Below are positions 23,449-36,714 of a stretch of DNA of 64,000 bases, in pieces (within the stretch, counting starts at the first letter, position 1; each line of letters opens with the position of its first letter). Below the pieces are notes generated by a model. The model had not been told where the DNA came from and ran no database searches. It saw only the letters and a program-made list of their open reading frames with translations. A program made the position numbers and the translations under genes. The stretch covers positions 63,151 to 127,150 of the forward strand of contig JBHAEQ010000035.1 in assembly GCA_041855685.1 (NCBI GenBank), read 5' to 3'. The stretch comes from Prevotella sp. Lineage in GTDB: Bacteria > Bacteroidota > Bacteroidia > Bacteroidales > Bacteroidaceae.

Positions 23449-23526
23449 TAAAAAAGGAGGCTGCCTTCACAGGCAGCCTTCCTATATTTTTTAGTTAATT
23501 AAGGTACGATTGTAAATCAGGATAAC
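23449..23526 (-). ncRNA. Candidate ~78-nt small RNA
   Basis: Minus-strand -7 box TACCTTTG (23538-23531) and CTTG 20 nt upstream; predicted +1 at G23526; ends in the hairpin plus U6; no ORF inside. Confidence 0.55.
23451..23490. terminator. Bidirectional intrinsic terminator
   Basis: GGAGGCTGCCT-tcac-AGGCAGCCTTCC hairpin with an A-run on the left and a T-run on the right. Confidence 0.88.
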
Positions 23527-23804
23527 GATGCAAAGGTATGCATTTAATTTGGTTTTTGCAAGAAAAAAATAGAACTTTTTTGATGGCGTTTGGTTGTGTG
23601 CGTACACAACTTGATATTTTAACAATTAGGAAAGAACAACACCTGAAAATATCTCTATTATTGATATAAAACAAAAAGTTTTGTTGTAAGCTTATCCACC
23701 TTTCCATTCGTTCTTTTTCCGGCAGTTCGTCCATTTTTATCGGCTCAGTCGAAATTTAGTGTGGGAGCTTTCAACTTGAGTTTAAGGAGTTAAGAGGTTA
23801 GAGA

Positions 23805-31923: not shown

Positions 31924-33231
31924 CTACAGCAAATCAGTAAGGAGGTTGAGTTTTATACCGTTACTTCCCTTTATAAGAATATAGTGGTTGTGCGGCTTTG
32001 CTTCATGCAAGGCAGTCTTAACCTCTTCTACATCGTGAAACTTGCGGAATGCGCATTCTGTCTTCCCAAATTCCTCACCAACAAGCCACACTTCCTTAAA
32101 ACCTGCATAGGCAAGAATGTCGGCAATCTTCTGATGTTCTGCCTCCGATGAGATGCCAAGCTCACGCATATCGCCAAGAATTGCTAACTTAGGTTCATCT
32201 ACTGCCATGAGTCTGAAGTTCTCTATGGCAGCTGCCATACTTGTAGGATTTGCATTGTAAGCATCGACTATCAGTTTGTTCTGTGCTGTAACAGTAAGCT
32301 GTGAACGATTGTTGCTTGGCTGATACTCTTCCAATGCAGTCTGAATATCATCATCGCTTACACCGAAGTATCTGCCCACGGTAACCGCTGCCAGAATGTT
32401 AGCCAAGTTATAAGTGCCTATAAGATGTGTGCGTATATTACGTTTTCCCTCTAATTCCACAACGAGGAAAGGGTTGCAACCTGCCACTCTGCCGTTAACA
32501 TAAGGCAGGGTTCTTACTTTCCTCTCCTCTGCCATCTGGCAAAGGTCAGTGTCCTTTGTGTTTAGGAATACAAACGCATTGGTTGTTTCTTTCTCTTGGC
32601 TTTTTGCTGTTGCCATATAGTCGTATAGCTCGCCCTTAGTGGCTTTAACTCCTTTAAAACTCCCGAATCCCTGTAAATGCGCTCTGCCCACATTGGTAAT
32701 AAGTCCGCATGTAGGTTCTACTGTTTCAACAAGAGTCTTTATGTCGCCAGGATGGCTTGCACCCATTTCCACTACGGCAATGTCGTGTTCGGGTGTCATT
32801 CTGAACAAAGTCTTAGGCACACCCACATCATTATTGAAATTGCCCAAGGTGAAAAGCACATTATATTTCTTTCCTAACACAGCGGCAATAAGTTCCTTGC
32901 TTGTAGTCTTGCCGTTAGTGCCGGTTATGCCTATTACTGGTATATTGAACTGTCGGCGGTGTTCACGTGAAAGGTCCTTGAATGTTTGCAGAACGTCGTC
33001 AACAAACAGTAGTCTTCCGTCATCGGCACTGCCTCCTGTCAATGCAACAGCCTGCTTGTCGTCAACCACAGCGTATGCACACCCTTTCTCAAGTGCACTT
33101 ACAGCAAACTTATTACCGTCGAACGATTCCCCTTTAAGTGCAAAGAATATAGAACCCTCAGGGCAGTCGCGGCTGTCGGTTGTAATTACAGGATGCTGTT
33201 TATACAGCTCATACAGTTTCTTAATATCCAT
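31924..33231 (-). CDS. murF: UDP-MurNAc-tripeptide--D-Ala-D-Ala ligase
   Basis: TDSR, GITGTNGKTT, GNFNNDVG, EMGASH, DAYNANP and KGSNG; real start MDIKK at 33231 with a TAATTTTG box at 33257-33250. Confidence 0.96.
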   Translation of the reverse strand: MDIKKLYELYKQHPVITTDSRDCPEGSIFFALKGESFDGNKFAVSALEKGCAYAVVDDKQAVALTGGSADDGRLLFVDDVLQTFKDLSREHRRQFNIPVIGITGTNGKTTSKELIAAVLGKKYNVLFTLGNFNNDVGVPKTLFRMTPEHDIAVVEMGASHPGDIKTLVETVEPTCGLITNVGRAHLQGFGSFKGVKATKGELYDYMATAKSQEKETTNAFVFLNTKDTDLCQMAEERKVRTLPYVNGRVAGCNPFLVVELEGKRNIRTHLIGTYNLANILAAVTVGRYFGVSDDDIQTALEEYQPSNNRSQLTVTAQNKLIVDAYNANPTSMAAAIENFRLMAVDEPKLAILGDMRELGISSEAEHQKIADILAYAGFKEVWLVGEEFGKTECAFRKFHDVEEVKTALHEAKPHNHYILIKGSNGIKLNLLTDLL

Positions 33232-33318
33232 ACAATCAGTTTTATGGCACAAAATTACTGCAAATGCACGAGAAAGCCAAACTATTAAATGCAAAACTTT
33301 CGTAAGCTCAATATTAAT

Positions 33319-33355
33319 GAGGGTGTGCCAAAGGTTTAACTTTTGACACACCCTC
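33319..33355. repeat. Palindromic REP-like/terminator element GAGGGTGTGCCAAA...TTTTGACACACCCTC
   Basis: Near-perfect inverted repeat; a degenerate copy lies at 12732-12757. Confidence 0.75.
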
Positions 33356-33405
33356 TCTTAAACTCTTAATTTAGTTTCCCAATTAGTTGCCTGTTAGCAA
33401 TCATG

Positions 33406-34122
33406 CTATTGATAAATCAAAGTTGGACTGAAGACAAAGGAACCGTCCTTGACAAATATATTACTAAGTTCCATCGACTTGGAGTGGTATTTCAGTACGA
33501 GAATTCCATCTTCGTTTGGCGCCCAATAGGTGTCATTGCCACTGGCATATACCACACCGTTGAAATTGAAACCACCTATACCGTCGAGATGGATGGCATA
33601 GCGCTGCATTAATTCGGAATATTGAATGCTTAGTGTGCCTTCCACCGTGAAGTCTGCATCGAAATGTTTTAAATCAGTCCAAGCAACCTGTGGGATTTGA
33701 CCCAAAGGCTTGCCGGCATAAACCCAGAGATTGTATGCATACCATCCATCGAAAGCCTCTGCTTCTGTGACGAAGTCATCGCCGGAGGAGGTTGCCTTCA
33801 GTTTGAATTTACCAGTGCCCATTCCTGTTCGGGTGTTGACATTGCCCGTCATTTCGAGTCCCTTGTGATTCATTGAGAAATTACCTTCGGCATCGAGGCT
33901 CAGTGTGCGGTTTTCAAAGGCGTCGATGGTGGCATAGCAGCGCTTGTTTGTAGGGAAGCGTATTTCCACCACACCTTTCAGATCGTGAATACCCTCGAGA
34001 TCGAAGTCATAAGTCTCCATGTTGCTCACGCTGTCTTCAAGGTCTTACGGAGGCGTGGCGTTGTCTATGCGGTTCACGGTGAGCGTTTTTTGTCCATCAA
34101 TGGCACTGAGACCGAACTTGCC
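33406..34122 (-). pseudogene. 5'-truncated gene fragment with an internal stop
   Basis: The frame of the 207-aa ORF continues upstream past TAA (34045-34047) as GKFGLSAIDGQKTLTVNRIDNATPP to another stop at 34123-34125; no start or signal peptide. Confidence 0.45.
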
Positions 34123-34194
34123 TTATTCCTATTTGTACTTGTTGTTATAATCAGTGAATCCTCTATATTAATATGCCGAAATAGGCTTTCGGGT

Positions 34195-34306
34195 CATGTT
34201 TCTCAATTAAGGTGCACATGTTTCCCAATTGCGGTGCATGTGTTTCCCAATTGAGGCGCATGTGTTTCTCAATTGCGACGCATGTGTTTCCCAATTGGGA
34301 AACATG
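34195..34306. repeat. About five tandem 22-bp repeats ending in a perfect 20-bp palindrome
   Basis: Unit about catgtgtttcccaattgcggtg; last unit extends to TGTTTCCCAATTGGGAAACA. Confidence 0.92.
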
Positions 34307-34412
34307 ATAGGACTAATTGTTTATGGAAATTAAAGTCGTGCTTTGACAGATGTTTATGATAAGGTTCCGCAGATGATATAGATGATATTCGTTGATGCAA
34401 GTGCCTGAAAAT

Positions 34413-34450
34413 GAATTAGGGAGCAACTCTGCTTGAGCGCTCCCTAATTC
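34413..34450. terminator. Hairpin closing the small-ORF transcript
   Basis: GAATTAGGGAGC...GCTCCCTAATTC perfect 12-bp stem. Confidence 0.8.
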
Positions 34451-34644
34451 TTGTGTTATCCTTTTAATAATACCTCAATTATCTGTTTGAATGTATTTTA
34501 TAATATGTGCAACGTGTTGAAACGTTGTTTTAAATTTAATTTAAGACCTTCTTGAGACTGTTTATTTTGTGCTTGTTCTCAATGTAAGGTCGTTGCTACT
34601 AACTTTATGAACACTCATTCCTGCCATGGGAATAGAGTAGTTAC

Positions 34645-34731
34645 TTATGCCTTGCAGTTAAGCATCAGCTGGATTATATCTGAATCCAGACGGCGGTTAG
34701 CTTTCTTGATAATGTTTACAATCTTCTTCAT
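34645..34731 (-). CDS. Small ORF 2 (28 aa) MKKIVNIIKKANRRLDSDIIQLMLNCKA
   Basis: ATG after an A/T-rich Bacteroidetes-type leader (aagttaattATG); MKKI start shared with small ORF 1. Confidence 0.55.
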   Translation of the reverse strand: MKKIVNIIKKANRRLDSDIIQLMLNCKA

Positions 34732-34822
34732 AATTAACTTTCTTTCTAATTTAAACAATAGGCTCTTTTGTTGTGTGTTATCCTGTTTTTTTTAGAGCCG
34801 TTCTCTTTTTTTTAACTCCGCT

Positions 34823-34903
34823 TTATTTCAATGGAATCATGCCTGTAGGCAGAAACGCATTTGAGTTGAAAGCCTTTTTAAGAGTACTCTTAATCTTTTT
34901 CAT
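34823..34903 (-). CDS. Small ORF 1 (26 aa) MKKIKSTLKKAFNSNAFLPTGMIPLK
   Basis: First ATG downstream of a consensus promoter; A/T-rich leader (tactattATG); lysine-rich amphipathic N-terminus. Confidence 0.62.
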   Translation of the reverse strand: MKKIKSTLKKAFNSNAFLPTGMIPLK

Positions 34904-35008
34904 AATAGTACAAATATTTCAATTTAACATGTGCCCCATGTGTGTGTTGTTATCCTGTTCGTGTTTCATGGAGGGGCGTTAACCATGCTTGGAACTCATT
35001 TCCGAGTG

Positions 35009-35202
35009 CAAAATTACTATGATTTCAATGATTGGCATAATATTTCTACTACTTTTGGCTTTATCAGCTTGTTTCATTGATAAATATCCAAAAAAGCGTG
35101 TTATTAATTCTTTAATGACTAATATCAACAGGGTTAAAACCTTGTAATGTCAAAAACATGCTGTTGATTTCTTGTTGTTTACATAAACATTTTGTAATTT
35201 TG
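35009..35202. promoter_or_regulatory. Divergent promoters: minus TAATTTTG (35016-35009) for the small ORFs, plus TAATTTTG (35195-35202) for the 35240 operon
   Basis: Two exact -7 consensus boxes. Confidence 0.7.
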
Positions 35203-35239
35203 CCGTGATTAAAAACTTATTGTGATTAGAATATTTATT

Positions 35240-35434
35240 ATGAGTAATAACTTTCCTCCTGTAAGCAGTGGTTTCAAAATAGGTGCTGTCTTAGGTATTA
35301 TTATCGGTGCAGCGGCAGGCTTTCTTACCGACAGGTTCAATGTGTTCATGCCATTAGGTATATGTGTTGGACTATGCTTGGGACTTGTATTCGATGAAAT
35401 TAAGAATAGAAAAGAGAATAATGATGAAGAATAA
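35240..35434 (+). CDS. Small glycine-zipper membrane protein
   Basis: GAVLGIIIGAAAG and GICVGLCLG GxxxG repeats; probable start ATG 35240. Confidence 0.65.
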   Translation: MSNNFPPVSSGFKIGAVLGIIIGAAAGFLTDRFNVFMPLGICVGLCLGLVFDEIKNRKENNDEE

Positions 35435-36335
35435 CTTTCTTTTGGCGGCTTTGCTGCTTGTTGTTGGCATAGGCTCTGTCAATGCTCAATTGTTGTATAA
35501 GATTTCAGGCAATAAACTCGAAAAGCCTTCTTATATAATAGGTACTTATCATGTGGCAAATGCCAAATTCATAGATTCTATAGCAGGAGCTTCTGAAGTG
35601 CTTAAGAATGTAGAGCAGGTTTATGGTGAGGTTCTTGCTGGCGAAATGACTAATCCTGCCAATATGCAGCTCATTCAGGACGCAATGATGCTTCCTGATG
35701 GTAAGACTCTGAAGGATGTATTGACAGAAGAACAGTATGGCAGGCTTAACAAGTATCTGATGAAAACAATGAATGCCGACCTCAGCAATCCTATGGTGGC
35801 ACAGAGTTTTGGCAGAATGACTCCGGCAGCATTGTGTATGCAGTTGACTGTGATTGCGGCTATTAATAAAGAAGGTGCGGCATTCGACCCTGCTAATATC
35901 ATCGACATGTTTTTACAAAAGTATGCTGTTGATAATAATAAACCGGTAGGAGCTTTTGAAACCTTGGAGTTTCAGCTGAACACTGTATATAAAGGTGCGA
36001 CTCTGGAGCGTAGTATAGAAACTCTTATGTGCTTAGTTGATAATCCAGACTTCTACGACCTTACACTCACCGAAATTCGTGATGCTTATTACAAGCAGGA
36101 CTTGAAGGCTTTACAAGACCTTAGTGACATGAAGCTTAACACCAGTTGCGACCCTTCTGATGCGGAAAAGGATGCACTCATATATAATCGTAATGCCGAC
36201 TGGCTTACCAAAATGCCTGCTATAATGTCTAAGTTGTCAACACTCTTTGCCGTTGGTGCCGGTCATCTGACAGGTGAACGTGGAGTTATTGAAGGGTTGA
36301 AGAAGGCAGGCTATACAATAGAGGCAGTAAAATAA
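35421..36335 (+). CDS. TraB/GumN (Tiki-like) family protein
   Basis: Signal peptide, LLYKISG, SYIIGTYH, FETLEFQ, RNADW and FAVGAGHL. Confidence 0.9.
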   Translation: MMKNNFLLAALLLVVGIGSVNAQLLYKISGNKLEKPSYIIGTYHVANAKFIDSIAGASEVLKNVEQVYGEVLAGEMTNPANMQLIQDAMMLPDGKTLKDVLTEEQYGRLNKYLMKTMNADLSNPMVAQSFGRMTPAALCMQLTVIAAINKEGAAFDPANIIDMFLQKYAVDNNKPVGAFETLEFQLNTVYKGATLERSIETLMCLVDNPDFYDLTLTEIRDAYYKQDLKALQDLSDMKLNTSCDPSDAEKDALIYNRNADWLTKMPAIMSKLSTLFAVGAGHLTGERGVIEGLKKAGYTIEAVK

Positions 36336-36342
36336 GAAAGCT

Positions 36343-36714
36343 ATGGGGTGCCTTGGTAACATAATCTGGTTGATATTCGGAGGGTTGGAAACAGCTCTTA
36401 TGTATTTTGCCTATGGTGTGGTATTGTGTTGTACAATAATAGGTATTCCTTGGGGCATACAGCTCATAAAACTTGGTTTATTGTGCTTATGGCCCTTTGG
36501 AACTCGTGCAACAGAAGGTTCTGATGCCGGTGGGTGTTTAGATTTGTTCTTCAGTGTAATATTCTTGCTGTGTGGAGGAATATTCATTTTCCTTACTCAT
36601 TTATTATCAGGCATATTGCTTTATATAACAATCGTTGGGATACCTTGGGGACACATGCATTTTCGCCTTGCCCGTTTAGCATTATGTCCTTTTGGTAAAG
36701 AACTTACTAGATAG
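36343..36714 (+). CDS. yccF: YccF-domain inner membrane protein
   Basis: GNIIWLIFGG, CTIIGIPWG, LWPFG repeated twice. Confidence 0.9.
   Translation: MGCLGNIIWLIFGGLETALMYFAYGVVLCCTIIGIPWGIQLIKLGLLCLWPFGTRATEGSDAGGCLDLFFSVIFLLCGGIFIFLTHLLSGILLYITIVGIPWGHMHFRLARLALCPFGKELTR

Follow-up and report, generated by a model that had tools for sequence, protein, structure and literature searches.

Do two tandem ORFs of fewer than 30 codons, both opening with MKKI and lying between a promoter and a terminator of their own, encode micro-proteins, or does their gene-like look have another source? The question is raised by ~590 nt on the minus strand of the window (the whole 64,000-nt stretch of Prevotella sp. 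DNA analyzed here), in which a sequence-only reading had picked out the two ORFs as unannotated micro-proteins and had named regulatory, membrane-active, and type I toxin-like functions as candidate roles. We examined the unit and its neighborhood, the leaders upstream of the two ORFs, a complementary small RNA, and the peptides, and we weigh below what each of these says about the part of the locus that is likely to be functional.

The transcription unit and its neighborhood

The −7 box, TAATTTTG (35016 to 35009, minus strand), matches the Bacteroidota consensus TAnnTTTG as read in the sequence and predicts a transcription start at about 35003 to 34999, with GCACUCGGAAAU as the 5′ end of the transcript. 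In blastn searches of 400 genomes of the genus, the promoter together with the initial transcribed sequence, TAGTAATTTTGCACTCGGAAA, recurred over 21 to 31 nt at 90 to 100% identity in ~25 other genomes, and one copy of a promoter of this type in a related genome precedes the RNase P RNA; it therefore looks like a strong ordinary promoter. Related genomes (loci L144, L148, and L150) also display a conserved promoter-proximal transcribed element, GCACUC(A/G)GAAAUCA(G/U)AGACGUGCGCC, which is sometimes duplicated and is found once 5′ of the RNase P RNA. The unit is closed by an intrinsic terminator (34408 to 34450, minus strand) that consists of a perfect 12-bp inverted repeat (34413 to 34424 and 34439 to 34450) followed by AUUUU, with a folding z score of −7.6; a simple terminator scanner had passed over this hairpin solely on account of its loop of >8 nt. 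The complete 599-nt transcript is more stably folded than its shuffled versions (z = −4.2), and a scan of the plus strand at the locus for promoters and terminators recovered weak consensus matches only. Thus, the consensus promoter and the terminator that had been described as bracketing ~590 nt were both verified in the sequence, and the locus is a plausible self-contained transcription unit.

Mini-ORF 1 (34903 to 34823, minus strand; 26 codons plus stop; MKKIKSTLKKAFNSNAFLPTGMIPLK) has the start region AUUAUGAAAAAGAUU, and mini-ORF 2 (34731 to 34645, minus strand; 28 codons plus stop; MKKIVNIIKKANRRLDSDIIQLMLNCKA) has the start region AGAAAGAAAGUUAAUUAUGAAGAAGAUUGU; the latter would yield 37 aa if the TTG at 34758 were taken as the start. 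Both peptide sequences agree, in the DNA and in the ORF list, with those of the sequence-only reading, which had further held that the unit contains only these two. That part did not stand, as there are additional ORFs of 21 aa on the minus strand and of 34, 62, and 69 aa on the plus strand; within the unit, however, a start region like that of a real gene is found at the two MKKI ORFs only. The probability of at least 25 to 27 sense codons after an ATG at the local composition is 0.12 to 0.14, so that the ORF lengths are at chance level, unlike the start regions, which lie far beyond chance (genome-wide E = 3e-5 for unit 2). The 1.2-kb gap around the unit has no ORF of >70 aa and no tRNA in a tRNA scan, and the Rfam 15 covariance models gave no match at E values of up to 1 in 33000 to 36500, the sole Rfam match in the window being an FMN riboswitch.

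Downstream on the minus strand is a tandem array of a 22-nt unit (34195 to 34319; ~4.7 copies) with the perfect palindrome TTCCCAATTGGGAA. A second array of this unit occurs in another intergenic region of the same genome (G000:C8:221-407), and such arrays are possibly operator arrays or small repeat elements. The array is followed by a 207-aa ORF (33406 to 34119, minus strand), which is a pseudogene derived from an 856-aa secreted protein, truncated at its 5′ end and with an internal deletion: it joins residues ~117 to 184 and ~685 to 856 and has an in-frame stop 5′ of its ATG. An intact 856-aa paralogue is encoded on another contig (G000:C13, ~74.5 to 77.1 kb), and a search of 150 other genomes from the genus did not recover the pseudogene fragment. 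Next in gene order is MurF, while the opposite strand upstream of the unit encodes a 70-aa glycine-zipper protein, TraB/GumN, YccF, and Fur. The neighboring TraB/GumN has no relative of >52% identity in the genus or in metagenomes (near-identical records lie outside the search set), and the regions of relatives that are syntenic to its neighborhood are free of the leader motif described below.

Leader cassettes and the ScnR157-type small RNA

Each mini-ORF is preceded by a hairpin that presents the same 9-nt motif in its loop. Leader hairpin 1 (34933 to 34977, minus strand) has the stem GCCCC(UCCAUG)/(CAUG)GGGC and a loop with CAGGAUAAC at 34957 to 34949; its folding z score is −2.3, and 3 of 200 shuffles were as stable. 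In leader hairpin 2 (34761 to 34799, minus strand), the stem GGCUCU/AGAGCC closes a 27-nt loop with CAGGAUAAC at 34785 to 34777 (z = −5.4; as stable in 0 of 200 shuffles). In both units, the motif lies in the hairpin loop at exactly −53 nt from the ATG and precedes AUUAUGAARAAGAUU. There is also a third site of this kind, near the end of the unit (34455 to 34481, minus strand), where AGGAUAAC at 34462 to 34455 is preceded by UAAUUGAGGUA at 34481 to 34471. The predicted unpaired probabilities of the three motifs are 0.65, 0.88, and 0.47. The 2.6-Mb genome has 22 occurrences of the string AGGATAACA, of which three are on the sense strand of the unit; no other noncoding sites of this kind exist in the genome.

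Counterparts of these leaders emerged from comparisons across the genus. When the gap was compared by blastn with 400 genomes of the genus, the matches were short and fell only on the promoter, on either start region, or on the hairpin 2 loop. The best of them is the leader of a real gene for a 119-aa signal-peptide protein (genome G090), which matches unit 2 over 74 nt with 77% identity and has a hairpin, GGGGC[..ACAGGAUAAC..]GCCCC, ~50 nt before AUUAUGAAGAAGAUUGUU. A family of secreted (signal-peptide) proteins of ~119 aa has members, often one to three per genome, in 258 of the 401 genomes of the genus, but a tblastn search showed it to be absent from the present genome. No Pfam or NCBIfam model matches this family; it has two L(T/D)xxQ-like motifs, which may resemble those of Spy/CpxP-type periplasmic proteins. 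Among 32 sampled leaders of the family, 30 contain AGGAUAAC/AGGATAAC in one to five copies each. In one class of leaders, with many examples, a hairpin presents the motif in its loop at a distance of −50 to −56 from the ATG, and the stems are unrelated and differ between species. The leaders of the family (loci L169 to L198, L142, and L156 of related genomes) have up to five tandem CAGGAUAAC sites.

A local search with a DNA profile of the family that covers leader and coding sequence recovered unit 2 with an E value of 1e-6 and unit 1 with an E value of 0.008 (34962 to 34892), and both alignments stop at about codon 5. With a profile of the leader alone (nhmmer, 2.63-Mb genome), the single significant match is unit 2 (34788 to 34718; E = 3.2e-5); unit 1 on its own is a weak profile match and agrees only around the ATG. 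The start-region consensus is AAAGAAAGGAAnnAAUUAUGAARAAGAUUGU, and the start region of ORF2 equals the family consensus. The units thus have in common with the family leaders the motif, its display in a hairpin, the distance of about −50 to −56 between motif and ATG, the start region, and the first four to five codons. They differ in that orphan ORFs of 26 to 28 codons take the place of the family coding sequence and in that two cassettes stand in tandem in a terminated unit of their own. No family coding sequence follows the cassettes, as the best match of the protein profile against the six-frame translation has an E value of 1.6, and there is no synteny between the family loci and the window.

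The motif CAGGAUAAC is the exact complement of GUUAUCCUG, the invariant 5′ end of a small RNA, and the complementarity amounts to a predicted 9-bp seed. The window itself contains a gene for this RNA (23450 to 23538, minus strand), with a promoter, TACCTTTG, at 23538 to 23531, the 5′ end GUUAUCCUGAUUUACAAUCG, and a terminator formed by GGAAGGCUGCC/GGCAGCCUCC and followed by U6. The RNA encoded there (~23526 to 23450, minus strand; 5′ end GUUAUCCUGAUUU; strong terminator) lies ~11 kb from the mini-ORF unit and is a diverged variant (GAUUUACAAUCG...). It is one of three genes of the type in this genome, the others being at G000:C54:49104-49215 (+) and G000:C18:44621-44720 (+). The junction TTTGCANCGTTATCCTGA of the small RNA was recovered from 147 of the 401 genomes, as against 3 for a reversed control pattern. 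Of 30 loci from other species, 28 show no variation over the first 30 nt (GUUAUCCUGAAWACAAUCUUUUUACCUUAA), whereas the remainder of the RNA varies.

We identify this RNA with ScnR157 on the basis of a riboprobe primer, YEO_233 (CAGTTATCCTGAAAACAATCTTTTTACCT), which matches the small-RNA 5′ sequence (C)GUUAUCCUGAAAACAAUCUUUUUACCU. ScnR157 is a constitutively expressed intergenic small RNA of Segatella copri that was mapped by dRNA-seq and detected on a northern blot; within Segatella its conservation is strong, and no target or function is named for it in its paper (bioRxiv 10.1101/2024.04.05.588293). The RNA studied here and S. copri ScnR157 share the 5′ sequence, a canonical promoter directly upstream, and conservation across the genus; what goes beyond ScnR157 as described is its link to the CAGGAUAAC leader repeats and to the mini-ORF transcript, which is inferred here. 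Another candidate, SrcF, was rejected, as it is a different RNA of 272 nt.

At the third site of the unit, UAAUUGAGGUA complements the UACCUUAAUUA stretch of the small RNA encoded nearby, so that a two-part duplex of −23.5 kcal/mol is predicted as the best RNAduplex site. We considered whether the leaders in general pair in this bipartite way (UUAAGGUA plus motif) and rejected the idea, since the feature is found in just four to five of the 32. Single motifs occur in the leaders of other genes for secreted or envelope proteins in related genomes. In the present genome, one AGGAUAAC lies ~22 nt before the ATG of each of two ordinary genes (G000:C50:34348 [+] and G000:C31:34258 [−]), one of which encodes a signal-peptide protein, and both are candidate targets of the small RNA. 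These single motifs, elsewhere and in this genome, suggest a regulon of exported proteins; because there are other candidate targets in the genome, retention of the small RNA would not depend on the mini-ORF locus.

Taken with the profile matches, this complementarity makes it very probable that the two units are copies of a genus-wide leader cassette complementary to ScnR157. The MKKI starts are thus start modules inherited from real genes, and hence their convincing look. A literature search with the leader 9-mer returned nothing relevant, and the leader motif, its link to the small RNA, and a mini-ORF transcript derived from such leaders were not found described in the literature searched. 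The small RNA is already known, and we class the locus as a putative small-RNA target or dual-function transcript.

Peptide, decoy, or relic

On this basis, we propose that the ~590-nt minus-strand unit is a stand-alone transcript of two tandem leader cassettes and a third, isolated binding site. It would be transcribed from the strong promoter, and both mini-ORFs would be translated because each inherits a complete start module; the small RNA would pair with the loop motifs and thereby set the translation of the ORFs or the stability of the RNA. The ORFs themselves would be lineage-specific stumps, in which the start region and the first four to five codons are common to real genes and the other 21 to 23 codons are lineage specific. 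We put the probability that the unit is transcribed, that both mini-ORFs are translated, and that small-RNA pairing sets translation or stability at about 0.6. Both units keep the motif, the hairpin, the spacing, and the start region, and the rest has diverged beyond alignment; therefore, the RNA cassette is probably what selection maintains, and the selected, functional part is probably this cassette rather than the peptides.

Searches with the peptides were blank throughout. An exact look-up in a collection of 15 billion proteins did not find ORF1, ORF2, or the 37-aa form of ORF2, and the last of these has 0 matches among 1.84 billion representative proteins. Tblastn searches with both peptides in their own genome and in 65 related metagenome loci gave self-hits and noise only, and the ORF bodies have no DNA match by blastn in 400 genomes of the genus. 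Conservation at the amino acid level, which had been suggested as a check, was accordingly not seen in the own genome or in those 65 loci, and the supposed likeness of the PTGMIP ending to small Bacteroidales peptides found no confirmation in the same searches. It had also been surmised from the continuation of another frame that ORF2 was once longer. Read-through of the ORF2 frame, however, scores a mere 0.4 bits when compared with the related protein family, a value that 66% of shuffles equal. By eye, ORF2 could be taken for a decayed gene of the family (ANRRL and, in frame downstream of ORF2, VFIKLVATTLH* against the C-terminal half), an assignment that we rejected in view of the profile E value of 1.6 and the same 0.4 bits.

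The in-frame codon usage tells a somewhat different story. From codon 6 to the end, the log-ratio is 0.27 for ORF1 (P = 0.05 to 0.07) and 0.345 for ORF2 (P = 0.02 to 0.03), as against a real-gene mean of 0.215; these scores are in the top 5% (ORF1) and 2 to 3% (ORF2) of shuffles and in the top 7% and 3%, respectively, of intergenic short ORFs. The combined P for gene-like usage in the two ORF bodies is ~0.01, and in each ORF the coding frame outscores the other two. Beyond MKKI, the two peptides share the pattern [LI]KKA..N..L....I.L (P = 0.05), whereas the DNA of their bodies is not alignable (P = 0.45). Codon usage and shared pattern hint that the peptides may matter after all. Folding of a hairpin within the ORF2 body does not reach significance (z = −0.09). 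Neither peptide has a run of ~15 to 20 hydrophobic residues, the longest uncharged runs being polar (AFNSNAFLPTGMIPL) or 8 residues long (IIQLMLNC).

These data bear most directly on the possibility that ORF1 and ORF2 are selected genes for functional micro-proteins, which would be basic, helix-prone cytoplasmic peptides under the control of the small RNA. The complete start modules from real genes on both ORFs speak for it, as do codon usage in the range of real genes (top 3 to 7% of intergenic or shuffled short ORFs), a marginal likeness of the peptides that is not matched by likeness of their DNA, and an ORF2 body that shows no significant RNA structure; yet there is no homologue in any collection searched (as the 37-aa form for ORF2 among the 1.84 billion proteins), the ORF lengths are those expected by chance, and the neighboring DNA is decaying. 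What remains of the micro-protein proposal is that translation is likely, given start regions homologous to those of genes and mildly gene-like codon usage, while the homologues that it called for were not found, and we regard peptide function as a tentative reading that is on balance unlikely. A membrane-active peptide or a type I toxin-antitoxin-like locus is extremely unlikely: small size, basic N termini, and a complementary small RNA are all that favor it, but the hydrophobic stretches of both peptides are too short to cross a membrane. Moreover, the small RNAs are encoded in trans, 11 kb off and on other contigs, and the predicted pairing is ~50 nt 5′ of the start codon; the small RNA itself is conserved across the genus as a presumed regulator, with complementary sites in the leaders of ordinary secreted-protein genes.

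If the RNA rather than the peptide is what counts, the transcript might be a decoy that titrates ScnR157-type small RNAs via its three complementary sites, with the ORFs being incidental. Three seed-complementary sites in one nongenic transcript behind a strong consensus promoter would suit such a sponge, and so would motifs that are predicted to be mostly unpaired, the extended complementarity of the third site to the neighboring small RNA, and a genome with three copies of the small RNA that is devoid of the usual target gene with multiple sites. A decoy, however, needs the motif alone, so that neither the conservation of the start region nor the spacing of exactly −53 would be accounted for, and the two-part pairing element, present in so few of the leaders, is not general; we consider this reading quite doubtful. 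Drift offers another account, in which the unit, without function, is what deletion has left of one or two secreted-protein family genes in a decaying region. The family has been lost from the genome, the sequence that directly follows is a pseudogene of another gene (truncated and with an internal deletion), ORFs of these lengths are expected by chance, and gene-like codon usage could stem from a former gene. Against this, no coding trace of the family was recovered by the protein profile, by read-through of ORF2, or by the DNA profile, which ends at codon 5, and both units have retained the motif, the −53 spacing, the start region, and a stable hairpin whose stem differs between them, a pattern more in keeping with selection than with drift; a relic is thus somewhat improbable. 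Elements of these readings can be combined, in that two leaders of a lost secreted-protein gene may have been kept and duplicated as an exapted target mimic. Such a dedicated RNA, translated and serving as a decoy or in a dual function, would buffer all three small RNAs of the ScnR157 type; we offer this as a speculative and rather unlikely variant.

Relation to known systems

The proposed small-RNA-responsive transcript invites comparison with several classes of bacterial RNA. Dual-function small RNAs are known from SgrS/SgrT and RNAIII/hld, and six intergenic small RNAs of S. copri hold ORFs of <50 aa. Like these, the unit is a short terminated transcript with no long gene, in which small ORFs lie beside RNA interaction sites; it differs from the dual-function RNAs in having sites of the target type instead of the seed of a regulator and in being known here from sequence alone. 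Traps for small RNAs can arise from target sequences, as in the chbBC intergenic region, which traps ChiX. Several target-like sites for a small RNA acting in trans are likewise predicted in the present unit, but it retains a full start module, which a trap does not need. With type I toxin-antitoxin systems such as Hok/Sok, TisB/IstR, and Ibs/Sib, the locus shares a small ORF and a complementary small RNA, whereas it has no hydrophobic helix, and its small RNA, encoded elsewhere, is a conserved and presumed regulator of ordinary genes for secreted proteins.

Viewed as micro-proteins, the orphan ORFs are a weak lead. The locus nevertheless led to a concrete, testable target rule for ScnR157, an RNA strongly conserved in gut Segatella/Prevotella, namely, the predicted pairing of its 5′ end with a leader motif that is repeated one to five times. 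To our knowledge, Bacteroidota have neither Shine-Dalgarno-based initiation nor classical RNA chaperones, which bears on the control of translation by small RNAs in these bacteria. Multicopy seed sites 30 to 120 nt 5′ of the start codon would be unusual, and the mini-ORF transcript would be a natural minimal version of such an arrangement. Were the target-mimic reading true, the unit would become the first sponge for small RNAs to be described in Bacteroidota, and it would reveal the target code of ScnR157 (CAGGAUAAC repeats, up to five per leader).

A scan of 185,579 species genomes for the two-motif pattern recovered only unrelated tandem repeats of the ACAGGAT type. Some other repeats came to light in the genomes compared. 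In one related genome (G063; loci L151 and L152), there are two copies of a palindromic repeat, GCTTTCGCCATCT...CAGGATAAAA...AAATGGCGAAAGC, which is unrelated to the leader cassette. The present genome contains a repeated intergenic element, ...GCGCAAATATGAGAAAATAGAAGCATTAGGATAACC...AATGACGTACGTGCATACACC, in ~9 copies (e.g., G000, C3:21218, C19:30800, and C33:30196).
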